From a virus (Duplodnaviria > Caudoviricetes): a stretch of 64,000 bases of DNA. This document shows, one piece after another, positions 3,040 through 61,600 of the stretch. The notes under the pieces are model-generated. The model was not told the origin of the DNA. It was given only the letters and a program-made list of their open reading frames with translations, and made no database searches. The stretch spans positions 3,253 to 67,252 of the IMG/VR virus record IMGVR_UViG_3300037512_000559. One strand, written 5' to 3'. Position 1 is the stretch's first letter. Each line of letters starts with the position of its first letter. The translations under genes and the position numbers were made by a program.

Positions 3040-4599
3040 ATGGCTGACACAATTACTATCGAAGCAGGTAGCCTTCCTGTATCGCGTGGTGCATTTGTGG
3101 ATGGAACGACCCAACCGTCGGACATCTACAAGTTCAATCGCTTCACTTATCTGGGGAGCGAGTTTGAGGCTACTATCGACCACCCGACTACCACGCCGGG
3201 TTCTCTCTCGAACGGCTATCCCGTAGCTAATACGGGGTGGCGCGTTGTGGCCGTTGGTGCTGGCGCAGAGACCGCCGCACAGGTGGACGCGAACACTCGC
3301 GCCATCGTGGGGCAGAACGCCCGCATCAATGCGCTCGAACTTGAGGCTCAAGACCTCTCTATGCGCGACAATATGGGTAACAAGATGATTCTCCGAAACA
3401 CCGCAAACACCTATGTTGTCCGTGCTGCCGGAACTTACTGCATTCCTCTTGTCTATGGCAATGGTATCAAGAACTCAAAGGAGAACGCACAGGCGTACAC
3501 CCGTCAAGGCTCTACCTATACCGCCGCCTTCGTCAATCACCTCGGAAACGCCATCACAAGTCCGTACATCGAGAAGAACTCCGGCTGCGAAGCTGGCTCC
3601 GTCGGACTGCTCTGGCAGACTGGTACTGGCCTCATTTCCGCAATCACGCTCGAACCCGGTACGGATTGCCGATACATCCGCTTTACTGCTGGCAGCATCC
3701 CCGCCACCAACGGCCTTGCGATAATTTTCGTGAAGGACTTGAGCGGCAAGATTATGTGGTCTTGGACTCTTTGGCTCACGACCGACAACCTCGACTTCGA
3801 GACCATCCAGAACCACACGGATGTGGACTACGAAATGATGCCGGAAGCACTTGGTACGATTTGGAACGCAGACCGTACCCGTTGCGTCAATCCGCACTTC
3901 CAATGGGGGCGCAAAGACCCGATGTGTCCTCCTTCCGCGTACAACTCCAACTCCAATATGTCGCTTTACGACATTGATGGCAACGCCTATTCTGGTTGGG
4001 GCGTTCTCGGAACGGATGGCGACCAACTCGCTACCAAGACTGTGGCGAACGCCATCCAGAACCCCAACCTGTTCTTCACGCGCTACGATTCGACCAATCA
4101 CAACTGGAACAATCTCGCGTGGTTCAACAACTTCTGGGCGGCAAACATCACGGGTAGTGGCGACCTCGCTGACAACCAAGACACCGCAATCAAGACCATC
4201 TACGACCCCTGCCCGCCGTTCACAATGCTACCCGCAGGACGCGCTTGGACTGGCTTCACCACCGATGGCGGAAACCACGGAGATAGCCTCTACCAATACT
4301 TCAACGTTGTTGACAAGAATGGTAGCGGCGATATATCCTCTGCCGACTTCACGAACGGCTGGTGGTTCAAGAAGAACGCATCCGATGATGTCGGAACGTA
4401 CTATCCGGCCTCCGGCTACCGCGACAGCGGTTCGGGTGGTCTCAGCGATGTTGGGTCGTACGGCTACTGCTGGTCGTTCGCTCCGGGCTCGCAGACCTAC
4501 GCCCGGGGCTTGGGCTTCCGTTCCGGCGGCGTTGGCCCGCTGCGCAGCAGCTACCGTGCGTACGGTTTCTCGGTGCGGCCCGCCAAAGAATTAAGTTAA
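3040..4599 (+). CDS. DGR target protein 1 (putative receptor-binding adhesin; C-terminal CLec-type variable region)
   Basis: 3' end matches TR with A-specific mismatches; TANTYVV, WSWTLWLT and FQWGRKDP motifs of Bacteroidales fimbrial-tip-like DGR targets; lies in the tail block. Confidence 0.9.
   Translation: MADTITIEAGSLPVSRGAFVDGTTQPSDIYKFNRFTYLGSEFEATIDHPTTTPGSLSNGYPVANTGWRVVAVGAGAETAAQVDANTRAIVGQNARINALELEAQDLSMRDNMGNKMILRNTANTYVVRAAGTYCIPLVYGNGIKNSKENAQAYTRQGSTYTAAFVNHLGNAITSPYIEKNSGCEAGSVGLLWQTGTGLISAITLEPGTDCRYIRFTAGSIPATNGLAIIFVKDLSGKIMWSWTLWLTTDNLDFETIQNHTDVDYEMMPEALGTIWNADRTRCVNPHFQWGRKDPMCPPSAYNSNSNMSLYDIDGNAYSGWGVLGTDGDQLATKTVANAIQNPNLFFTRYDSTNHNWNNLAWFNNFWAANITGSGDLADNQDTAIKTIYDPCPPFTMLPAGRAWTGFTTDGGNHGDSLYQYFNVVDKNGSGDISSADFTNGWWFKKNASDDVGTYYPASGYRDSGSGGLSDVGSYGYCWSFAPGSQTYARGLGFRSGGVGPLRSSYRAYGFSVRPAKELS
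4406..4592 (+). repeat. DGR variable repeat VR1
   Basis: 187-nt ungapped match to TR 5372-5558; 26 mismatches, 25 at TR adenines; all 17 AAY codons altered. Confidence 0.97.
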
Positions 4600-5155: not shown

Positions 5156-5371
5156 CCCGTATGAACACGCCGCGAAATAGGCAGAAGATGGTTGAACCTG
5201 CGGTAAATCGTATTCACTCCGTCCAGTCCTTCTCAATTCAGCATCCGACCCTCAAGACAAGGATATATCAGATGCTGCTTGCGATTGCGTTTGTTTTCGC
5301 AACGGCGGAAGTCTATGCCACCGTCAACGTTTCGTCCCCGATGGCATATTCACAAAACAAGATGCTCATAG

Positions 5372-5558
5372 CGGCCTCCGGCTACCGCAACAACGGTTCG
5401 GGTGGTCTCAGCAATGTTGGGTCGAACGGCAACTACTGGTCGTTCGCTCCGAACTCGCAGACCAACGCCCGGAACTTGAACTTCAATTCCGGCAACGTTA
5501 ACCCGCTGAACAACAACAACCGTGCTAACGGTTTCTCGGTGCGGCCCGCCAAAGAATT
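5372..5558 (+). ncRNA. DGR template repeat (TR)
   Basis: AAC-codon-rich invariant copy of VR1 and VR2, between avd and RT; 3' IMH*-like end diverges (GAATTGGGGG versus GAATTAAGTT in both VRs). Confidence 0.95.
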
Positions 5559-5601
5559 GGGGGTAGTGGCGTGTTCATATTTCAAAAAAAAAGCAAGTGA
5601 T

Positions 5602-6768
5602 ATGAATTATTCGATTTCGGATATTCACTCGCTTGTTACGAGGGCTTATCTAAAAGCGCGTGAAGAAGAAAGGGGTACGGATGCGCAGGTCGAGTTTGAA
5701 CTGAACCTCGAAGGCAACATCAGAGACATTGAACTTGAACTTTACCGTCGCGTATGGTGGCCGCAACCGCTCGATTGGTTCGTGATTGTCGAGCCGACCG
5801 TCCGTGAGGTGTTCGCGCCGAAGTTCCGCGACCGCGTGGTAAGTCACGTTCTGTTTATGCTCATATCGCCAATCTTTGAGCGATACTTCGTGTTTGATTC
5901 GTTTTCTTGCCGAAAGGGGAAAGGAACTCTTGTTGGCATTGAACGACTTGAGCATCACATACGTTCCGTAACCAACAACTATACGAACGATGCTTGGAGT
6001 TTGAACTACGACATCCGGGCCTACTTTATGTCGATTGTTCGCGAGCGTCTATTCTACATAATAGATGACACTTTGGTTAAAAACCAGCTTCGCCAACCAG
6101 AACTCATTGATTACGACTTCGCCAGATGGCTCGTTGCCACCATCCTTTCACGCGACCCGCTTGAAGGTTGTGTTTACCACGGAAATCCGAACCTCATAAA
6201 ACTTATCCAGCCCGGCAAGAGCCTACGCGACCAAGAGCCGGGTGTTGGAATCCCTATCGGCGATGTGATGAACCAGTTGTGTTCAAACATCTACCTCAAC
6301 GAGTTCGACCAATATGTAAAGAGGGAACTTCATATTAGAAACTCTGTACGGTACGTTGATGACGGGAAGATGCTTCACCAAAGCCGTACATACCTTGAGG
6401 ATTGCTGGTGCTTGGCCGAAAAGTTCTTGAAGGAACGCCTTGCACTCACGCTCAACCCGAACAAAACAACCATTACGAATGTCTATGACACGATATATTT
6501 CCTCGGCTCTGCATTGAAGCCTTATCGCAGACACGCACGAAACGAAACTGTTGAGCGATTTAAGAAATATATCGAGGATGCGAACATCAACCTTGCGGAA
6601 GGAACGGTTGCCCCTAAACACGTTCTATCCAACATCAATTCACGCCTCGGATACTTCTCGCACTTCGATGAGTGGAGAATGATTCATAAGGCTCTTGAGG
6701 ATGCGCCATATATCACAAAATACTTCGATTTCACCCCAGACCTAAAGAAAGCAATTATCAAACACTAA
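5602..6768 (+). CDS. DGR reverse transcriptase (388 aa from the likely ATG at 5602)
   Basis: FRDRVV, DSFSCRKGKG, YDIRAYF, GIPIG..NQ..SNIYL and RYVDD motifs; adjacent TR and avd. Confidence 0.95.
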   Translation: MNYSISDIHSLVTRAYLKAREEERGTDAQVEFELNLEGNIRDIELELYRRVWWPQPLDWFVIVEPTVREVFAPKFRDRVVSHVLFMLISPIFERYFVFDSFSCRKGKGTLVGIERLEHHIRSVTNNYTNDAWSLNYDIRAYFMSIVRERLFYIIDDTLVKNQLRQPELIDYDFARWLVATILSRDPLEGCVYHGNPNLIKLIQPGKSLRDQEPGVGIPIGDVMNQLCSNIYLNEFDQYVKRELHIRNSVRYVDDGKMLHQSRTYLEDCWCLAEKFLKERLALTLNPNKTTITNVYDTIYFLGSALKPYRRHARNETVERFKKYIEDANINLAEGTVAPKHVLSNINSRLGYFSHFDEWRMIHKALEDAPYITKYFDFTPDLKKAIIKH

Positions 6769-20365: not shown

Positions 20366-21027
20366 TCCTCAGTTAGTATGCTATGGATGTTGATTTTCTT
20401 CTTCTCAATCAAAACCAACTCGCCATCCTCGATGCGGAATCCGATGTCGTGAAGGTGTTTGATTATCTGGCGAGGCGTGAAGTCGTTGAGCGTCTTTGCT
20501 TTCGCAAGCACAGAAGCATTCTGGACGGGCTTCTTATACTGCTTCTTGGCGAGTGCCATATTTATTGCATTTGCGAAGTCGGCGATGAAGTAAAGCCCAT
20601 CCTGCGGACAAATCGTGAAATTTTGTGCCGTTCCATCAGAAAACATAAGGTTTACCTCGCAATTGGACGCGATGGGGCAGAGCGCGATTCCGATGATGCC
20701 ATCAGCGTTTTGTCCGCCACGACAACTCTTGAACTTCTGCCAAAGATAGTATTGGAGCGCGATGAAATCAATCTTACCAACTTGATGAACATTTGCGTTC
20801 TCGCCACGAAACATCGCGGGGTCGTGGGCCGTGACGGTATCTACCGGGGTTCTACCCCCCCCCTCGGACACCTTCTGCTTCTTGGCCTCGCTATAAAACT
20901 TCATACTTACCGCGCCCTCGGTGCGCCCGAACATCTGGGCTATCTCCGAAAACTTTGCACCTTGTTCGCGCATCTTCTTCATTTCCTGCCATTCCGCATC
21001 GGAATACGGCTTTTGCTCTTTACTCAT
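20362..21027 (-). CDS. Hypothetical protein with N-terminal Myb/HTH-like domain
   Basis: YSDAEW.EMKKMR.QGAKFSEIA..FGRTEGAV; start preceded by the CACTAA..GCCTT motif. Confidence 0.55.
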   Translation of the reverse strand: MSKEQKPYSDAEWQEMKKMREQGAKFSEIAQMFGRTEGAVSMKFYSEAKKQKVSEGGGRTPVDTVTAHDPAMFRGENANVHQVGKIDFIALQYYLWQKFKSCRGGQNADGIIGIALCPIASNCEVNLMFSDGTAQNFTICPQDGLYFIADFANAINMALAKKQYKKPVQNASVLAKAKTLNDFTPRQIIKHLHDIGFRIEDGELVLIEKKKINIHSILTEE

Positions 21028-21055
21028 AAGGCATTAACATTTAGTGTAACAACAT

Positions 21056-21137
21056 TGGTGGAGATAGCAGGAATCGAACCTACGGGGAATAAATACGTTA
21101 TGGCAACATCCTACTACCCCCGCACCCAGCTATCCCC
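21056..21137 (-). ncRNA. tRNA-like element with alanine identity (no D-stem)
   Basis: GGGGAUA/UAUCUCC-A-CCA acceptor with G3.U70; T-arm GUAGG-UUCGAUU-CCUGC; no canonical D or anticodon arm. Confidence 0.55.
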
Positions 21138-21214
21138 GGTTTGGCGGTGGGGGAGTTTTCACCGCCTTGCGAACTAACGTTGATAGAAATAATTGTTATT
21201 ACCTCTCCCCTGTG

Positions 21215-21294
21215 TGCGCAGGGAGGGAATCGAACCCTCACTCCGTAGAACTGGCTCCTTGGGCCAGCGCGTCTGCCAATTCCGCCACCTGCGC
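21215..21294 (-). tRNA. tRNA-Leu (anticodon AAG, C33; CCA not encoded)
   Basis: Full cloverleaf: GCGCAGG/CCUGCGC, D-arm GCG-GAAUUGGCAGA-CGC, CUGGC-CCAAGGA-GCCAG, short variable arm, GAGGG-UUCGAUU-CCCUC, discriminator A. Confidence 0.8.
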
Positions 21295-25929: not shown

Positions 25930-26175
25930 TTATTGCTCTATCCAATACTGCGCGACCCAAGCCGTACCACCGTCTGCGGTCGAAACTTGAATCTTCTTGC
26001 GCTTGACTTCGATTCCATTCTTCTGCTGGATGTCGGTGATTCTGGAGGCGAGGCGGGCGCATCCGAATCTGCGTAACGCCTCTTGTGAGGTCAGCTTACC
26101 TCCGCTCTGGAGGAACGCGAGGATTCTCGCCCGCTGCGTGTCGCTCCGAGGCTCGTTGTCATTGATGTTTGCCAT
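25930..26175 (-). CDS. Winged-helix DNA-binding protein (HTH_39-like)
   Basis: TQRARILAFLQSGGKLTSQEALRRFGCARLASRI; start preceded by a variant of the CACTAA..GCCTT motif (TCCTT-ATG). Confidence 0.7.
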   Translation of the reverse strand: MANINDNEPRSDTQRARILAFLQSGGKLTSQEALRRFGCARLASRITDIQQKNGIEVKRKKIQVSTADGGTAWVAQYWIEQ

Positions 26176-26194
26176 AAGGATTAGATTTAGTGAA

Positions 26195-27278
26195 TTATTC
26201 TGCTTGGTTGAATAGGTTTTCTCCCTCGTTGAATATCCGCCTCGTTGCCATCTTTTGATATTCTGGATTCAACTCTATTCCGATGTAGTTGCGGTTGAGT
26301 TTTCGTGCCACAATCCCCGTAGTCCCGCTACCCATAAAGGGGTCGAGAATAACACCACCTTCGGGGCAACCAGCAAGGATGCACGGTTGGATTAGTTTCT
26401 GCGGATAGGTGGCGAAATGCGCCTCCCGCGTAGGCTGAACATTTACCGACCATACACTCCGCTTATTTCTCACGGTGTATTCATCGTCCGGCAGACCATC
26501 CTCCCTGCGTAGGTGCATCGAATTAGGTCTTTGACCGTCATACTGCACGTTCTTAGTGCGTGGCACATAGTCTTTGCCGGAGTATCTTGCGAAGTGCGGG
26601 TCATCGGATTTTCCGTACTTGTTGCCACCGAACTTATGCCCCTTCTTGACCTTCGGCTTAAATGTTCTGGAGCCGGATTGATAATTTGTTCTCTCTTGGT
26701 CTGCGCACGGCTCCATTATCGCTTCGTGGTCAAAGAAATACTTGTCGCTCTTTGAGAACAGGAAGATGTATTCGTGGGATTTTGTACACCTATCCTTGAC
26801 GGATTCCGGCATCGGATTAGGCTTCGACCAGATGATGTCTTGGCGCAGATACCAGCCATCTGCCCTCATAGCAAATGCGAACATCCACGGAATACCGATG
26901 AGGTCTTTGCTCTTTATACCCCCCCCCGGTTACGCCTCTCGGAAGCCCACCCACAATCGCACCCGCGTTGGTATCTTGCTTTCCGCCGTTGCTATGCCTA
27001 CCGTTCCCGTTCTGCCCTTTTCCGCTTCCAGCATAGCAATCTCCGAGGTTCACCCAGCAAGTGCCGTTTGGTTTCAAAGCCCTGCGGATTTCGCGGAAAA
27101 GACTAACGAGTTTTTCGATGTACGCCTCCGGCGTTTTCTCAAGCCCTATCTGTCCTTCGTGACCGTAATCGCGGAGCGCATAATAGGGAGGCGAAGTAAC
27201 AACGCAATCCAGAAAGTTATCGGGGATTGTCCTCGCTATTTCAAGGGAATCGCCCAGATAAACCTTATTGAGTTCCAT
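26195..27278 (-). pseudogene. N4/N6 DNA methyltransferase (beta class), split by a +1 offset at a G9 tract
   Basis: VTSPPY in ORF 26817-27278; IIWSKPNPMPES and DPFMGSGTT in ORF 26195-26884; removing one G at 26919-26927 joins them (GGIKSKDLIGIPW), 360 aa. Confidence 0.85.
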
Positions 27279-32899: not shown

Positions 32900-33745
32900 T
32901 TATTTATCGTCATTCAGCCCCAGAAACTCCTGCGCAAGCCAAGTCAGCTTCGGGGCGGCAGGGGCGCAATACCGCTCCGTCATAGCCACGTTCCTGTGGC
33001 CGCTCATACGCGAGATAGAAACCAAGTCCATCCCCGATTGCTGCAAGTTCGTGACGAAGGAAATGCGGAAGGAATGGCTGGTAATGTAGTTCCATTTCTC
33101 CCCCTTCTTCGTTTCCCCGGCGGAATACACGGTTACAGGCGTGTCGATTCCGGCCCGCTTGCAGAGCCGCCGGATAATGTCGCAGCGAGAAGGTGTGCTT
33201 GGCTCGTCATCCCTGTGCGATTGCGCGTAGTTAATCCATCGGAGAACCTTCTTTGAGATAGGCACGGTGCTTTGGATTCTCGTTTTCTGGCTTACATAGA
33301 CCAGTTCGTTCCCTCGCACGTTCTCCGCCGTGAAGGTCATAATGTCGGAGATTCTGGCTCCCGTGTAGGCTTCGAGTAGGCATTCAATCTGCACAAGTGC
33401 CTCCTTCGGGTTTCTGGTAGATACCCCCTCGAATTTCCGTAGTTCCTCCGGCGTGAGATATGTACGCAGGGGGGCCTCGTTCTTTACAGAGAGGATTTCC
33501 ACCCAATCGTCTGGAAGGGTTACATAGTCCAGATGCCGCCGGACGAAGGCTTTGAAGTTGAGGATTACGGTACGGGCCGTAGAAGCCGCCAGATTCTTCG
33601 TGAGGGTGTCGCGTAGGTCATATAAGCTCTCTCTGCTTATATCGCTCCATTCGTTGATTCCAGCAGCCAACAGGTGCTTTCGCATAGTGGATGCCGCCCC
33701 GCCGTTATCGCGGAAGGAATCAAGTGCTTCTTGTAGTGTTTTCAT
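32900..33745 (-). CDS. Second tyrosine recombinase (short, no arm-binding domain)
   Basis: YTGARISD, HSFRISF and GHRNVAMTERY; 281 aa. Confidence 0.9.
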   Translation of the reverse strand: MKTLQEALDSFRDNGGAASTMRKHLLAAGINEWSDISRESLYDLRDTLTKNLAASTARTVILNFKAFVRRHLDYVTLPDDWVEILSVKNEAPLRTYLTPEELRKFEGVSTRNPKEALVQIECLLEAYTGARISDIMTFTAENVRGNELVYVSQKTRIQSTVPISKKVLRWINYAQSHRDDEPSTPSRCDIIRRLCKRAGIDTPVTVYSAGETKKGEKWNYITSHSFRISFVTNLQQSGMDLVSISRMSGHRNVAMTERYCAPAAPKLTWLAQEFLGLNDDK

Positions 33746-33808
33746 AGGGCATACAAAGTTAGTGATTATTTCGTGGGGACGGACAGGGCCACCCGCCCGT
33801 CCCCGTGT

Positions 33809-34009
33809 TTAGAACCTCCGAATTAGCCAGCTCTTTTTAGGCTTATTCCAAAGTCCATCGGAGTAGCCGGAGGCTATTGTATGGTTGTCGTATTTGACAT
33901 AGTAACGCCACATAGGAACGGCGCAATCTTTCTCCAGATACTTCTCTATGGTAATGGTCGCATCGTCGTAGATATTGCGGATTTCTTCGCGCTTGAGGAT
34001 GGTTGTCAT
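33809..34009 (-). CDS. Early cassette gene, hypothetical
   Basis: ORF with the conserved start motif. Confidence 0.6.
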   Translation of the reverse strand: MTTILKREEIRNIYDDATITIEKYLEKDCAVPMWRYYVKYDNHTIASGYSDGLWNKPKKSWLIRRF

Positions 34010-34069
34010 AAGGCGTTGTTTTTTAGTGAATTTGCAAGCGGAAGGAGCGCAAACCCATCCCGCCCGGTG

Positions 34070-34270
34070 TTACTTTTTCGACAACCACGCATCCCTCCGT
34101 CCCCTCGCTTCGTCCAGAGATTTCGCCACGCAGGAGAACAACTCCCCGTCCGTATGGCGGTAGTCGTATTGAACCAATCTTGTTGCTTTACGCCCAATCT
34201 TCTGGGTGTAAAATTCGTAGTTTTCGCGCCCAGCCGGGCAAGTGCTACAACCGTTAATGTCTGTTTTCAT
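34070..34270 (-). CDS. DUF3873-like protein
   Basis: INGCSTC..G.E.YE.....IGR....LVQYDYRHTDGELFSCV..SLDE.R..RD.W. Confidence 0.75.
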   Translation of the reverse strand: MKTDINGCSTCPAGRENYEFYTQKIGRKATRLVQYDYRHTDGELFSCVAKSLDEARGRRDAWLSKK

Positions 34271-34328
34271 AAGGCATAATTTTAGTGATTTTTGAAAGGA
34301 GGTTCCGGCGAGAGAACCATCCCCTGTT

Positions 34329-34523
34329 TTACCATTTCGGTGTGTTTTCGGCGATTAAATCGCCCCATTGCCTGTAGGTATATTCCCCGTATTTCTTCCT
34401 CATTTCATCGAAGTCATTGCAACCAGTAAGATTCGATAGGATGCAGAGCAATTCGTGATAATGTGCGGAAGTTGGAATGGTGTCGAGCATATTACCCAAG
34501 CAGTTCAAAAGAGATTCGGACAT
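34329..34523 (-). CDS. Early cassette gene, hypothetical
   Basis: ORF with the conserved start motif. Confidence 0.6.
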   Translation of the reverse strand: MSESLLNCLGNMLDTIPTSAHYHELLCILSNLTGCNDFDEMRKKYGEYTYRQWGDLIAENTPKW

Positions 34524-34583
34524 AAGGCATAAAAATTTAGTGGTTTGTGAAAGGGGTGGCGGTCAGACCACCCCTCCCGGTCT

Positions 34584-35150
34584 TTACTTCGCGTAAATCT
34601 TTGCGAGTTCGCAGATTTTCCGAAACTCAAACTCCGTAACGTGGCCAAACATCCACCTGTGACGGTCCGGAATACTCCTCAATGTAGCCATTACTTTCTG
34701 GTATGTCTCCAGAACTTCGTCGAAGTGTTCGAGGCAATCGCGGAGTTGTTCGATTTCTTTCTTAAAACCCTCTACGTTTTTGTCAACCAGAGTGCAGAAC
34801 TTTTCGGCATCCATCGGGCCGTTATACATAACCTCCCAAGATTTCGCGTTGACATCATTATCCAGATTCCAGAATCTGTTTGCATAGCCATAGGCCCGTG
34901 TCCCGTCTCGTAACTCCATCAACTCCACTTTGATTTGGTAGTGGAAGGTCTCATCGAATCCGCAGGAGAAGCAGGGATAGCCGTTGCCCCATTTAGGGCC
35001 AGCAGCGGCCAATTCGTTTGTAAATCGTCTGTTGACGATTTTCCCGTTATACTTCCGCGCAATAGCTTTCATTGTGTCCGCAAAAGCAATCATTTCCTCG
35101 TAAACCCTAATTTGGGTTGTTGCGTAGGTTTCGTAAGATTTGGATTTCAT
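34584..35150 (-). CDS. Early cassette gene, hypothetical (188 aa)
   Basis: ORF with the conserved start motif. Confidence 0.65.
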   Translation of the reverse strand: MKSKSYETYATTQIRVYEEMIAFADTMKAIARKYNGKIVNRRFTNELAAAGPKWGNGYPCFSCGFDETFHYQIKVELMELRDGTRAYGYANRFWNLDNDVNAKSWEVMYNGPMDAEKFCTLVDKNVEGFKKEIEQLRDCLEHFDEVLETYQKVMATLRSIPDRHRWMFGHVTEFEFRKICELAKIYAK

Positions 35151-35213
35151 AAGGCATTTTGTTTAGTGAATTTGTGAGGCTGGCATCGGTCAAGATACCC
35201 GCCCCCGGCTTTA

Positions 35214-35468
35214 TTATTTGTCCCACCACGCGAGTTCCGCATATTCGGGACTGCAAGAGAAGTCCTCCGGCACGAAGTCCACCCCTTCGTAATTTCGGAA
35301 GATTACATCGTCCGGCACGATTGCATCGGCATTCGCTATATCGTACCAACTTGGTTCGTCATAGTCAACGCCCATAATCTCGGCAAACTCGCCAGATTCG
35401 GCAAGTTGGGTCAGATACCCCTGCTTTAGTTCGGTCAACTGTTCTCGGTTCAGTTCGGTTACATTCAT
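35214..35468 (-). CDS. Early cassette gene, acidic hypothetical protein
   Basis: MNVTELNREQLTELKQ; very acidic; conserved start motif. Confidence 0.6.
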   Translation of the reverse strand: MNVTELNREQLTELKQGYLTQLAESGEFAEIMGVDYDEPSWYDIANADAIVPDDVIFRNYEGVDFVPEDFSCSPEYAELAWWDK

Positions 35469-35509
35469 AAGGCATTTAATTTAGTGATTCTTTGCAAGGC
35501 CCGGCGATT

Positions 35510-35881
35510 TCACTCCCCGGCCCCCGTTTCGTTTTCGGCAACGGTTATAACCCCGTCCCCGTCCTGTTCCAAGTGGAAGCCAAGCCCGTCTATTATAAGA
35601 CCAGCAACGCCCGGCTCCACTTCGTCCCCTCGGCGCAACCGCCTCAAAGCCTCATCAAGGGCTACAAAGTACAGGCAATTATCGTAACCGCCCTTTTTAT
35701 GCAGCCCCCGCCCCTTTGCTTTCTGCCAGACTTCCGAAAGGATTTCAAGGTATAACCCCCGCCCCCTTTCTTCTTTCATAGCCCCCTCCCTTTCTTTTTC
35801 GTCCCCTCTGCTTTTTGCAAACACCAGAAGGATTACCGGGATTTCAAAGGCAAGCGCGATTAGAAACCATTTTACAATCAT
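35510..35881 (-). CDS. Membrane-anchored hypothetical protein
   Basis: N-terminal TM segment; coupled (ATGA) to the upstream peptide. Confidence 0.5.
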   Translation of the reverse strand: MIVKWFLIALAFEIPVILLVFAKSRGDEKEREGAMKEERGRGLYLEILSEVWQKAKGRGLHKKGGYDNCLYFVALDEALRRLRRGDEVEPGVAGLIIDGLGFHLEQDGDGVITVAENETGAGE

Positions 35882-35985
35882 TTTGGTTCGGACTTAAAAA
35901 AGTGGATAACGCATTTTACAAAGGTTGCAATTACTTTGCAGCCAAGAGCGGTCATAACCGCCCAGAGAAATACGGTAGTGTTCAT
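35878..35985 (-). CDS. 35-aa hydrophobic peptide
   Basis: Manual translation MNTTVFLWAVMTALGCKVIATFVKCVIHFFKSEPK; conserved start motif. Confidence 0.5.
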   Translation of the reverse strand: MNTTVFLWAVMTALGCKVIATFVKCVIHFFKSEPK

Positions 35986-36048
35986 AAGGCAAAATAATTT
36001 AGTGAATTTAGCAGAAGCGGCCCGGCCAGAGGCCGCTCCCGGTTGGCA

Positions 36049-36306
36049 TTAGTTGTAAATCGTAAAATCCGAAGCCGGACGGAAAGTACAGGTATATCTG
36101 GATGGCGAAAAATACGGCTTCCGATATGTCCAATTTACATTCTTGTAGGAACTGTCCGAGCCGAAACCGTCAAGCATTTTATTAGCTTCGTTCCAATTCT
36201 GGCAAATGGCAACCTGTTTGTGTATCTTGTTTTCGGCGTGACCCCAGCCGGACACAGTAACCGAAATCCAAGCGGACGAGGGGCAAAGTTTAGCAAGATT
36301 TTTCAT
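36049..36306 (-). CDS. Early cassette gene, hypothetical
   Basis: ORF with the conserved start motif. Confidence 0.6.
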   Translation of the reverse strand: MKNLAKLCPSSAWISVTVSGWGHAENKIHKQVAICQNWNEANKMLDGFGSDSSYKNVNWTYRKPYFSPSRYTCTFRPASDFTIYN

Positions 36307-36375
36307 AAGGCATCAATTTAGTGGATTGGAAGCCCGGAAGCCGTCACCAGCAAACCGGGCCGGAAGCGTAGAACG

Positions 36376-36765
36376 TCACCCGATAATAGATATTCGCCCG
36401 GCGTTATAATAGTATTCAAACGAGGAGCCAGAGCGAGAAATAACACGATACACAGGAACGAAGAAAGGGAAATAACGGCCAACGTTATAAAAGTCTACGA
36501 GGGCGAAGCGGTCGAAATTGTTTATGATTTCCTGTTCACGATACCCAAATGGGTTGTTTTTACGTTCAATTCCGCGAGGCGTTTTCCACTGGTTAAGAAG
36601 CCAAGAAAGCCCCTTTTTTGTTTGCTCCTGTGTTATCCTCAAATTCCCATTATTAAAAATCTCCCAGACATCCGCCCCACGATTTGCGCGGGATTTAATT
36701 GTAATTATTTGGCGTTCAGTAATTACGCCAGCAGCGGCGATTGTTTCATAAAAATTAGTTTTCAT
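36376..36765 (-). CDS. First early cassette gene, hypothetical
   Basis: ORF with the conserved start motif. Confidence 0.6.
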   Translation of the reverse strand: MKTNFYETIAAAGVITERQIITIKSRANRGADVWEIFNNGNLRITQEQTKKGLSWLLNQWKTPRGIERKNNPFGYREQEIINNFDRFALVDFYNVGRYFPFFVPVYRVISRSGSSFEYYYNAGRISIIG

Positions 36766-37249
36766 AAGGCGATAAATTTAATTAGTGAATTTTGAGAGCC
36801 AGCAACCCGCGAAGGTTGAAGGCCCTTTTTGCGTCCCGCCCTTGCGGGGCTTGTGGTTTTTCCGTATTCTGCAATTCAACTGTTAAAGTATCCAACCACC
36901 AAAGCAAAGACCAGCAGCGGCCCCGGTTTATTTAGACACCCCCGGCGGAGTGTAAAAAGTTTTGCCTATCTGATTATATCAAAATGTCAAAGAGCGAAGG
37001 CGGGCGGGCGTTTGAGGTTCGCACTAAATCCCAATACAAATATAATAAATATATTGTTAGGTTGTACCAATAAAATGAAAAATTTTGCAAAAAAAGTGAA
37101 ATTGCGGAGTTTTGACAATTCGCAACACATTTTGACAATACCAAAGACCACAAGAGGCAACACCCAGAACCACCGAACCAAGACAGGACAAGACCAGAAA
37201 TAAAGCCGTTTTGGGTGGACGATGAGAGAGGAACAAAATGCCGGGTTTA

Positions 37250-42779: not shown

Positions 42780-42975
42780 CACAACGCGCCTTACGGCCAC
42801 TTGCCCGCATTGCGGCTGCGAGTTCGAGTTCCTTGAGACGGAAGCCATCGCCGGATGGTCGCCAAAGGATTTGTATATCCATTGCCCGGAGTGCCACGAT
42901 GTAGTCCGGGAGGTTCATTTCAAAGAACCGAGCGATGGCAACGAAAATCGGAAATACAACCCTCGCAAGGGGTAG
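42757..42975 (+). CDS. Zinc-ribbon protein
   Basis: CPHCGCEF and CPEC. Confidence 0.55.
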   Translation: MKVLKHGNTTRLTATCPHCGCEFEFLETEAIAGWSPKDLYIHCPECHDVVREVHFKEPSDGNENRKYNPRKG

Positions 42976-43123
42976 AAGGGTGCGGGTTGCGCAGCCGGAC
43001 GGCTCCATCGCCTACTTGGAGTGGGCGAACCGCATTGATACGCCGATGCAAGATACTTTGGGGCAGAATCTCGCTGAGAGGTACAACGACTCCCTGCGCG
43101 GGTTTTGCGATTTTCCGCTATAA
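42935..43123 (+). CDS. Hypothetical protein
   Basis: ORF track. Confidence 0.4.
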   Translation: MATKIGNTTLARGRRVRVAQPDGSIAYLEWANRIDTPMQDTLGQNLAERYNDSLRGFCDFPL

Positions 43124-43196
43124 CGAAAACCGCCCCGCGTTTCACAACGAAGGGCGGCAAAATTCACTAAATTTATTGCCTTATGTTTCCATAAGA
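43123..43196 (-). ncRNA. Candidate trans-acting antisense sRNA complementary to early-gene start regions
   Basis: Core CAUAAGGCAAUAAAUUUAGUGAAUUUUG; 3' terminator CCGCCCUUCG/CGCGGGGCGG-UUUU; 5' CUUAUG-GAAA-CAUAAG hairpin. Confidence 0.65.
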
Positions 43197-43202
43197 ACAC
43201 CA

Positions 43203-43234
43203 CAAAGGTAGTCTTTTTCTTTGGAAATGCCAAA
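43203..43234 (-). promoter_or_regulatory. Promoter of the candidate sRNA
   Basis: TTTG-N20-TACCTTTG on the minus strand, immediately after the RusA-like stop. Confidence 0.7.
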
Positions 43235-43582
43235 TCAAATCCGCGTCGGGCCATCAAAATGCTCGATGCGGACTTTTATATACTCCCGACCTTTCTTAAC
43301 GATAATTTTTCGGACGATTGCAAGGTATATCTCCTTGTCGTTAAACCCGTATTTCTTTTGGAGAATGTCGCCAAGAGGTTTGCAGGGGTTGTCGTAATCG
43401 CTCTGGGAGTTGCTGAAACCAAATTCGTAGTAGATTTGATAAGGTGGTTCTGGTAGGGTGATTCGCGGCAAAATAAAGAGCATCGCCCTTTCGTATCGCT
43501 TGTAGTCATCGGTCTTGAACCGCCTACCTTTCCACGCCTCGTTCACCGAGAGAGGCTTAATATCTACCCTAATCTCACTCAT
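43235..43582 (-). CDS. RusA-like Holliday junction resolvase
   Basis: PLSVN, DYDNP.K...DIL....GFND..I motifs. Confidence 0.75.
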   Translation of the reverse strand: MSEIRVDIKPLSVNEAWKGRRFKTDDYKRYERAMLFILPRITLPEPPYQIYYEFGFSNSQSDYDNPCKPLGDILQKKYGFNDKEIYLAIVRKIIVKKGREYIKVRIEHFDGPTRI

Positions 43583-58666: not shown

Positions 58667-61600
58667 TGGCAAGGTTCTCCATATACTCCGCGAATGGTTC
58701 TACGGTACGTTATTCTGGCGCACCCGTATATCGCGGTTCGCACCTCAAGCCTGCGTATCTGGAGTTCCGCGAGATAGCATCCCCAACAAAGATTTCGTGG
58801 CAGATTGGCGACTATGTGGACTATGGGCGCACGGGTTTTCGCTACAAGCTATACTCCATCCCGTACCCTACGAAACAGGCGGTCGCCAACGCTGCTGGGG
58901 ATTCCTTCGTGTATAAGGATGTGCAGTTCTTCTGCGCCACGAAAGACCTTGAGATAGCGCCATTCCGCGACCTCGTTATCTCGGACAACCAGATTCACTT
59001 CACCACCCTGCCGGAAGTCTCCACCTACGAGGATGTTTACGGCATCGCAAGGCGTATTCAAGCGAATATGGATTCCTTCTACGGCGAGGGTGCTTGGGTT
59101 ATCCGCGTGTTTGACACATCGGATTCAGAACTCCGTGCGCTGATGCTCGAAACGAAGGAGTTTAGCCTTTCGGACGGAACTTGCCTCGATGCCCTCTCGC
59201 AGATTTATAGCCAATGGAAGGGAATCGGGTGGATGTATTCTGTGGAGAACGGTGTGAACACCATCACCATCGGTCGCCCGAACGTACAAGATAGGGACAA
59301 CACCACAAACCTTTTTGCATACGGTGTCGGCAATGGACTTACGCTCATCAAGAAAGAGCAGAGCCAAAAGAACGACCTCGCAACGCGCATCTACGCCTAC
59401 GGTTCTACGCGAAATCTCATCGCTCGGTACTACAACAACCTCACGCCAGCTATCAAGGATGCCGAGAGTGTCTATATCCCCAACCTTATGATTCCTCTTT
59501 CCGAATGGGGAGAGACGGACGAAATGAAGGATGCTCGAAAGGCTTTTCTTGAGGCTTCGGAGGATATTGTTGCGAAATACGGATTGCGCCCCAAGACCAT
59601 TTATTTCGATGGTTCTGGCGACTACGAAGAAATCTACCCCTCGCTCGAAGGTATGACTGCCGGGCAGCTTCGTGCAGCGATGCAACCAACGGACGAATAC
59701 TATCCGTCCACGCGGTTCGCCGCGGATAGCCAGAGGCTTGATGAGGTGGCACTCGCAGAGAACCCTGCGGACGATGGCGTTATCGCCACCGAGGGTGGCG
59801 GCAAGTACATCCAGACCGTCAACCTTCTCGGCGTTTCGCAATCACATACCTACACCTTCGCAAAAGGGCAAGAATCCGCCAAGATACCGCTTACAGGCAT
59901 TGTTGTGTCGAACACTATTTCCGCGATGGGTAAAGTGTCTGTAACGCCTTCTTTTGCGGCAACAATCGAATCGTCCGTAAACCTCGGCACTTTATCTGTC
60001 CGCCTGTGGCTGGAAATTGGCGGTGTCAAGTACGGAAACATCGGTGGAAAGATTACGAGGGGCGTAGGTAACTCCTATACGGTAACGATTGACCCGTTCG
60101 ACATCAGCACAGAGGATGTCGGAGAGGTGCTTCTTACTGGCTACATCTTCGCCGCTCCTACCAACAAGGATGGCGCAACGCTTTCCTACGCACTCAATAT
60201 GGGGACAACGAAACTTGAGGTGCAGACCGTACTCAAGGATTCGTTCAAGGTTCATATCCGCCAGATTGGTTTCGATATTTCCAAGCAGCAGAGCGCGATT
60301 TCCGATGGTCTATGCACCATCGCCTTCAAGACTGGATGGTGTGCTGGGCGTGAGTTCACCGTGAAGAAATGCGAGTACCAAGAATCCAACGACCGTTGGG
60401 TGCTTACGGTTGCTCGCCACAACGACGAGAGCCTGTCTCAGTATTTCCCAAATTCCATCTACAAGATTGAGGCTGGCGACCGATTCGTGCTTACCGACCT
60501 CACGATGCCGGAGGTCTATATCACCTCCGCGATGCAGAGGCTTTTGGAACGCGCCCAAGAGGTGCTGACCGCGCTTTCCACGCCAAAGTTCATCTATGAG
60601 CCGGAGATTGACGCGAAGGTACTTGCCAGTTCGCCAGAATTGCTCCTTGAGGGTATGTATATGCCCATACAGGATGACGATGTTATTGAGGATGCGGTCA
60701 ACATTCGCGGCGTAGAATACCATCGCGATTGGGTGATGATTGATTCCATCGAAATCAATGAGGGTGACGAGGCTATTCCGACCTACAAAGTGACCCTGCA
60801 AGATGAGAAGCGAGAGAGTTTCCTCTCACGCATTTCCCGGCAGACGGGGCATAACACCCGCGACATTTCCGAAATCGAATTGAAAGACCTTCGCACGGAG
60901 GTGGAAGAACTTACACCGTCTGTCTATGAGCCGGAGGAAATATCGGTTGAGGTGGTCGCATCGCACCCCATCATCGGCTACGAAACTTCGTTTGACGATG
61001 AACCCGTGAATGAGGTTACTTTAACCTGCCAGACAACGGGCATTGATAACCCATCATACCAATGGTACTACCTCGGTGCTATCACTTGGGTTGCCATCAG
61101 CGGTGCTACCGGGCAGTCTTATGCCGTTGACCCCAACTCGCCGTATTACTACCAAAACGGAGATATTGTAGAGGATTTCCGATGCGTTGTTAACGATAAT
61201 CCAGACCTCGCGGCGAGTGTCCAGATTATGAAGGTTCTCGCCAACGCGGTCAGCGTTTCGTTGAGCAACCCGGCCCATATCTTTGCTGCTGGTGTTCAAT
61301 ATGCGGAGGCGGCTACCGACCGCACCGACATTCTCGGCTACAAAGGTGTTGAGAGATTCGCCACTAAAGTCAAGATGTCCGACATCCGATTCCTTGATTC
61401 CGCGAGGAACGAGTTGCTTGCTGGATATACTGGTGGCCGATTGAAGGATTCGCAGGGACGAGACCTCACAGATTCGCAGGGACGATACTTGACCGTTGCA
61501 ACGGGTAGCGGGGCGAGCCTCGTTGATGCCATCACAGGCGATGTGATGATGACCGTTGAGGTAGTGGATAACAACACGACCGCAACCTATTTGAACATCA

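Follow-up and report, generated by a model that had tools for sequence, protein, structure and literature searches.

A predicted small RNA antisense to a start-codon motif shared by 11 early genes of a bovine gut phage

A 64-kb stretch of phage DNA (hereafter the window; positions 3,253 to 67,252 of the 67,252-bp IMG/VR record IMGVR_UViG_3300037512_000559, Caudoviricetes) very probably contains a genuine small-RNA gene on the minus strand at 43197–43125, and the predicted RNA is likely to repress, by base pairing, a set of early genes that share a leader motif at their start codons. Both assignments are predictions from sequence. The RNA would be ~73 nt long (43125–43197, with ends placed by the −7 box for 5' and the U-run for 3'), and the promoter, terminator, antisense core, and position behind a late operon that had been described in a first-pass annotation of this DNA are all present. 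The promoter has a −33 box (TTTG, 43234–43231) just past the stop codon of a RusA-like gene, a 20-nt spacer, and a −7 box (TACCTTTG, 43210–43203) with a full match to the −33/−7 consensus, as quoted in PMC7366714. The RNA is predicted to consist of a 5' stem-loop of 7 bp with a GAAA loop (43179–43196), an unpaired, A/U-rich seed of 20 nt (43159–43178), and an intrinsic terminator (43126–43158), in which a GC stem (43158–43129) with an inner CGUU-GUGA-AACG hairpin (GUGA loop) is followed by a U-run (43129–43126). In this predicted fold the 3' arm of the 5' stem-loop is the anti-start-codon sequence and the 5' arm mimics the start region of the leaders, and the seed complements the upstream block of the leaders, at about −15 to −26. 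The unit lies in a convergent gap between two operons, with a minus-strand operon encoding TerL, portal, head-morphogenesis, and RusA-like proteins upstream (ending at 43235) and a plus-strand operon that includes a primase on the other side (ending at ~43123).

The core of the unit (43185–43158) is the reverse complement of the leader element. A loose pattern applied genome-wide (CACTAA, 3–12 nt, [GC]C[CT]T-ATG) identified exactly 12 copies of the motif in the 67,252-bp genome, 11 on the minus strand at the same ATGs that the first-pass annotation had named and one on the plus strand at 43158–43185, which opens only a three-codon open reading frame (ORF; M-F-P-stop), as had been claimed. The identity of the 35985 site to the inverted copy over blocks of 14 nt and 10 nt was likewise reproduced. 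Predicted duplex energies between the RNA and the 11 targets range from −20 to −28.6 kcal/mol, compared with −8.1 ± 3.2 kcal/mol for 737 ORF starts, amongst which the 11 targets are the only ones below −20 kcal/mol; the nearest of these targets is at least 6.4 kb from the unit. Full-consensus promoters occur five times in the window, against 0.31 in shuffled sequences, and the small-RNA promoter is one of the five, with the other four sensibly placed, including in the divergent control region at ~37.2–38.6 kb. Based on this promoter count and on target duplex energies far below background, a chance match is excluded.

A GC-rich hairpin lies just 5' of the motif in nine array copies and in the inverted copy, indicating that the latter is a whole inverted leader module, and the terminator of the RNA doubles as the hairpin of that module. 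Because the hairpin is shared with the leaders, the twelfth copy could be simply one more module, a question that is settled by the relatives. A plus-strand ORF that spans the unit (42855–43211) was considered as a gene and rejected; it lacks a family match, and 1- and 2-nt indels within the unit in relatives indicate that it is non-coding. No Rfam family reached its gathering score in the window, and the only weak score at the locus belonged to an Enterococcus small RNA model (E = 0.85).

In comparisons with relatives the phage is designated G000. The unit is found at the same place in two IMG/VR contigs, G001 and G002 (RusA-like protein 83% identical), and in the metagenome contig L185. A three-way alignment of G000, G002, and L185 has invariant −33/−7 boxes, spacing, 5' stem, seed, and terminator loop, together with unrelated promoter spacer sequences and one terminator pair changed on both sides. 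Identity to L185 is 82% in the unit and 67–70% in flanking genes, and the RusA-like gene and the last plus-strand gene of L185 cannot be aligned with G000. G000 and G002 cease to be homologous at 43126, exactly where the predicted RNA ends, and a variant contig joins 42921 directly to 43126. G001 and G002 possess four and seven forward leaders, respectively, and one reverse copy each; the leaders and RNA copy of G000 both read TTCACTAAA, and the leaders of G001/G002 mostly read CTCACTAAT/A, matching their RNA copy. No similar record was present in the annotated phage collection, and an exact search of viral contigs with a 16-mer of the 5' stem-loop produced 91 matches, only two of which were real relatives, the remainder being chance. 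A structured pattern search returned nothing from genome contigs and one new lineage, L185, from metagenome contigs.

More distant relatives were collected with TerL-based searches (52 viral loci and two contigs from metagenome-assembled genomes, MAGs) and scanned for a −7 box followed by a hairpin and T-run within 110 nt, with matches inspected afterwards. The same kind of unit is present in L191, L195, L197, L198, L200, L201/L202, L205, L208, L209, L210, L215, L216, L223, and L238, as well as in the complete genome G064, bringing the total to 19 units, each in a contig of a rumen or gut phage related through TerL. The 18 units that were folded (61–79 nt) each have a short 5' stem-loop, ~20 unpaired bases, and a terminator. 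Across 17 aligned units the −33/−7 boxes and their spacing are kept (the TTTG of the −33 box in most), the spacer sequence is free, the TTTG part of the −7 box is invariant, and the U-run on the antisense strand is conserved across motif classes. RNAalifold applied to the MAFFT alignment recovered the terminator only, with compensatory changes in four of six pairs; the 5' stem-loops, unrelated in sequence, were misplaced by the alignment and their presence is therefore taken from single-sequence folds. Predicted tetraloops in the 19 units fit GNRA in 22 of 31 cases on the promoter strand and in 0 of 31 on the other (~1/32 expected), indicating that the promoter strand is the functional RNA strand. 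Read in the sense direction, the RNA-gene copy leads into ORFs of only 0–21 residues in most units and of 29, 52, and 109 residues (by chance) in three contigs; no conserved gene follows it in any unit, a point that the first-pass annotation had named as a test. Amongst the TerL relatives in which no unit was detected, a few are equivocal and six (L193, L194, L199, L206, L213, and L219) lack a repeated start motif in the available sequence; as both motif and unit are present elsewhere in the complete genome of L194, absences in fragments carry no weight.

An alternative is that the hairpin does no more than terminate the late operon, at the 3' end of which the unit lies in G000 as in many relatives; the motif copy would then be a decaying leftover of a leader module and the promoter match a coincidence, with neither a separate RNA nor a function. 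The hairpins are near-palindromic, such that an inverted module would yield a terminator for free, but a leftover of this kind is very improbable given that the unit is more conserved than its flanking genes in L185, tracks the motif changes through several classes (see below), retains its −33/−7 boxes, and in G064 is located ~35 kb from TerL.

Leaders in the relatives were called by taking the hexamer that recurs most often ahead of the first ATG of ORFs, with no use of the RNA sequence, and fall into at least four motif classes: GCCTT-ATG (G000), GAGTT-ATG (L191, L198, L215, and L216), GCATT-ATG (G064), and TTTAGCY-ATG (in both leaders and RNA of L200), with yet another variant carried by L208. 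In every matched relative the unpaired stretch of the RNA is the reverse complement of the motif of its own phage; the L223 and L209 contigs are fragments without a leader array and their RNAs were left unmatched to targets. Within a class the mean duplex energy is −22 to −28.6 kcal/mol, L216 being the exception (−17 to −21 kcal/mol), compared with −7.5 to −20 kcal/mol across classes; one L215 'leader' used in this comparison is in fact the RNA-gene copy, which slightly inflates the value concerned. Over whole records, the GAGTT-class motif has strand counts of 10+2, 8+1, 9+1, 3+1, and 2+2, with zero for a reversed-pattern control. The second opposite-strand copies in the complete relatives G057 (~60984, L252) and G059 (~48362, L254) head a real helix-turn-helix-like gene, so the RNA would also reach a likely regulator. 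In the 5' stem of G000, L185, L208, and L215 the anti-start sequence is base-paired to a mimic of the leader start region, and this stem changes with the leader motif (CUUAUG/CAUAAG in G000 versus GUUAUG/CAUAAC in L215), and the complement of the start codon is within the conserved stretch in most units. As in G000, leaders in the relatives follow a hairpin. The co-variation of motif and antisense copy, which the first-pass annotation had suggested looking for in related phages, is seen across at least four classes, each with a matching RNA, and each relative in which a start-associated motif was found also bears an opposite-strand promoter-to-terminator copy with no conserved ORF.

Several observations weigh against a repressing RNA that covers the start codon. 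The RNAs of L191, L195, L197, and G064 lack a full AUG complement, and in G000 the anti-start part is locked inside the 5' stem. A test for a surplus of differences that preserve G-U pairing gave 39 compatible versus 25 breaking transitions overall, with the balance reversed in class A. Many of the 19 units are closely related, such that independent events number nearer 5–7, and a single metatranscriptome run (X20) yielded eight short contigs of this phage, none over 43100–43260, and is uninformative either way. Finally, co-variation of leaders and inverted copy would also be expected from gene conversion or from one DNA-binding protein reading all of the copies.

This last point leads to a reading in which a phage protein recognizes the motif as DNA, be it a repressor acting at 'stoperators' or a recombinase that exchanges cassettes, with the inverted copy as one more site and the promoter and terminator incidental. 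The inversion of the whole module (hairpin and motif) rather than of the motif alone fits a DNA site, as does the maintenance of a conserved loop (~YYTGACCG) by leader hairpins with unrelated stems in several phages (window 33770–36830, minus strand; L191, L198, L244, and G064). Further, a tyrosine-recombinase-family gene ends the array, and variant contigs from other cattle-gut samples skip or replace the genes between modules (34009–34534, 36044–36243, 36343–36760, and 42921–43126), suggesting that the modules act as cassette junctions, both between whole genes and beside the 3' end of the RNA; none of the contigs aligned to the region, however, contains a strand-switch joint. A DNA site would also parallel the extended start-associated sequences (ESAS) of cluster K mycobacteriophages, which have been interpreted as protein-binding or promoter sites (PMC3203893, PMC11373665). 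It does not account for a motif at zero distance from the ATG in every class, which fits a signal at the level of translation, for promoter boxes and a U-run conserved on the antisense strand across classes, or for GNRA loops confined to the promoter strand, and is considered quite improbable.

The small RNA is thus preferred, and the unit has, by sequence evidence, its own promoter, a terminator on the same strand, an accessible seed to distant targets, and co-variation of seed and target, the attributes by which a trans-acting small RNA is recognized. The host main sigma factor would transcribe the RNA from the −33/−7 promoter, with transcription ending at the intrinsic terminator. The unpaired seed would nucleate on the leader block 15–26 nt upstream of the 11 start codons and pairing would spread into the 5' stem, the 3' arm of which is complementary to the start codon and the preceding bases. 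The resulting duplex would cover the ribosome landing site in a host without Shine-Dalgarno pairing and block translation, with the mRNA probably cut or destabilized afterwards. Such a mechanism is plausible in this host group because Bacteroides have neither Shine-Dalgarno sequences nor Hfq and their small RNA GibS represses through long single-stranded pairing over start codons (PMC7366714). Expression is probably constitutive, including in a lysogen, which is favored by the host-type consensus promoter and by the G064 unit that is not beside the late operon. The earlier proposal that one small RNA shuts off the early regulon is therefore backed by the comparative sequence evidence, while the version in which it acts at the late switch is weakened by the ~35 kb that separate the G064 unit from TerL. 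The RNA may instead impose a threshold, overcome only when early mRNAs outnumber it, and, hypothetically, shut down early genes of incoming phages that share its motif class.

It is unlikely, though conceivable, that the RNA pairs with the leaders to a different end, namely RNase III processing of the early mRNA, premature termination, or activation. Each target site is directly 3' of a strong hairpin without a U-run, some RNAs of relatives leave the G of the AUG uncovered, and the P4 CI RNA terminates transcription at repeated leader sites; set against these are the start-codon complement inside the conserved stretch of most units and, for activation, a leader region that is predicted to be unstructured, leaving nothing to open. 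Processing or termination cannot be separated in silico from a translational block. In L198, L205, and L208 the RNA terminator is an inverted copy of a leader-type hairpin, and in L198 the terminator loop is complementary to the leader loops, making a loop-loop contact possible.

A tentative extension, more doubtful than the repression itself, is that motif and small RNA form a matched 'barcode' pair that provides a prophage with RNA-based immunity against phages of the same barcode. Under such a scheme, escape from silencing would select for the joint change of leaders and RNA, and this would explain the presence of several motif classes amongst otherwise similar phages.

The 11 targets are all on the minus strand, and nine of them head successive genes of an array that runs from 36765 to 32900. 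The array opens with a 129-residue gene (leader motif at 36763–36794), followed by genes for proteins of 85 residues (36304–36330), a 35-residue hydrophobic peptide (35983–36011), 84 residues (35466–35493), 188 residues (35148–35175), 64 residues (34521–34549), a 66-residue DUF3873 protein (34268–34294), and another protein of 66 residues (34007–34035), before ending with a 281-residue tyrosine-recombinase-family gene (33743–33771). The remaining two, further down the same strand, encode an 81-residue winged-helix (HTH_39) protein (26173–26199) and a 221-residue protein with a weak Myb-like match (21025–21053). A leftward early promoter with a candidate −7 box (TATATTTG, 37044–37037, minus strand; sequence match only) probably drives the array, and the leader module itself leaves only ~27 nt from hairpin to ATG, too little for a host-type −33/−7 promoter. 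At 21027 the place of the leader hairpin is taken by what resembles the 3' end of a tRNA (T-arm plus acceptor-like sequence; 21054–21127), and a tRNA-Leu(AAG) gene (21214–21294) lies another 190 nt upstream. In G002 a consensus promoter stands immediately before a tRNA-like sequence (L192:18355–18502).

The remainder of the target-array strand is occupied by replication and recombination genes. At least the first 100 bases of the record recur near its end, so the genome is probably complete and circularly permuted or terminally redundant. The DNA runs that contain this phage are bovine gut metagenomes. Its host is likely to belong to the Bacteroidales, judging from the Bacteroidetes-type promoters, the DUF3873 protein, and the presence of a related TerL in a MAG of that order. 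A 457-residue integrase with an arm-binding domain makes a temperate lifestyle probable. A reverse-transcriptase gene at 5161–6768 of the window (phrog_1423, E = 3e-77) is presumably part of a diversity-generating retroelement.

Additional units were seen in some of the relatives. On the strand opposite the late operon, L189 has a second, convergent unit (L189:5760–5860) with a −7 box TATCTTTG and a terminator loop CGUUGUGAAAACG nearly identical to that of the RNA in the window, and no leader matching its body was found; the hairpin appears to be mobile, occurring in different units and in either orientation. Straight after the first unit, L209 (4357–4441) and L238 (16757–16853) have a second promoter-to-terminator unit with a different unpaired stretch, and such phages may possess a pair of small RNAs that differ in their targets.

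No published phage small RNA working in this way was found in the literature, and a 2025 review of phage small RNAs, which lists sar, OOP, aQ, VpdS, DicF, and others, includes none that targets a repeated start-codon tag (PMC12197685). The closest systems in function are the antisense RNAs c4 of P1/P7 and CI of P4, and the closest in layout are the start-associated sequences (SAS) and ESAS of cluster K. The c4 RNA of P1/P7 (immI; Rfam C4, RF01695) is phage-encoded and represses phage genes by pairing at the ribosome-binding region, and Citron and Schuster reportedly described in 1990 that the RNA and its target differ together between heteroimmune relatives. In an enterobacterial host, c4 is processed from the transcript of its own targets and acts at two sites in one operon (icd/ant), whereas the RNA described here has its own promoter, is kilobases from its targets, addresses 11 start codons, and comes from a phage with a probable Bacteroidales host. 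Membership of the c4 or the CI family is supported neither by Rfam, where the window has no RF01695 match, nor by layout, as c4 is encoded upstream of its antirepressor target and co-transcribed with it, whereas the unit here has its own promoter and lies at least 6.4 kb from its nearest target. The CI RNA of the satellite phage P4 is an immunity factor that recognizes repeated complementary sequences in early transcripts. It is cut from the transcript that it controls and causes premature termination at two leader sites, in contrast to the start codons of many cistrons here.

Like the predicted RNA, sar of P22 and OOP of lambda are small (68–77 nt) and transcribed from a promoter of their own up to an intrinsic terminator, and they lie across the start of a phage regulator or the end of its coding region (PMC12197685), but each overlaps a single target in cis, while the RNA here overlaps none of its many targets. 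GibS of Bacteroides thetaiotaomicron shares the host group, the independence from Hfq, and a long unpaired seed over start codons, and differs in being chromosomal, with two metabolic targets and no repeated target motif (PMC7366714). The promoter(early) stem-loops (PeSLs) of T4-type phages are also short, conserved modules of stem-loop plus motif that flank small early genes in variable regions and mark cassette swaps (PMC2839356, PMC4122927); PeSLs carry an early promoter, for which the hairpin-to-ATG interval here has no room, and have no known antisense partner.

The SAS/ESAS of cluster K resemble the present system in that an asymmetric motif, often preceded by an inverted repeat, lies within a few bases of the ATG of 11–19 non-structural genes. 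Pope et al. noted a single SAS in the opposite orientation away from a gene start and left open whether RNA or protein is the binder (PMC3203893); a 2024 paper (PMC11373665) still described the SAS as ill-defined in role, with no RNA partner proposed or tested. In Mycobacterium phage Anaya there are 16 forward copies and one reverse copy, the latter (L245:39871–39883, record 59870–59882) in a 385-bp gene-free gap after the gp96 terminator, and any plus-strand transcript of the gap would contain the SAS complement, including the Shine-Dalgarno core. The SAS consensus (GGGATAGGAGCCC, 13 bp, 3–9 bp from the start) has a different sequence with a Shine-Dalgarno core and occurs in another host phylum, whereas the motif here directly abuts the ATG, and the resemblance is one of layout only: many copies in one orientation and one opposite copy off the gene starts (11+1 here, 16+1 in Anaya). 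The barcode logic may explain the SAS, with their lone inverted copy in a gene-free gap.

If the predictions hold, a start-codon tag alone could define a regulon, in a phylum without Shine-Dalgarno pairing and Hfq; start-associated sequences, the function of which has been open since 2011, would have an explanation that is concrete and can be tested; heteroimmunity based on RNA could exist amongst Bacteroidales phages; and a compact programmable part would be available for switching gene sets in Bacteroides. To our knowledge, the known antisense RNAs of phages act on one gene or one operon, and the system proposed here would extend such control to one RNA matched to a start-codon tag on many genes, with RNA and tag diversifying together.
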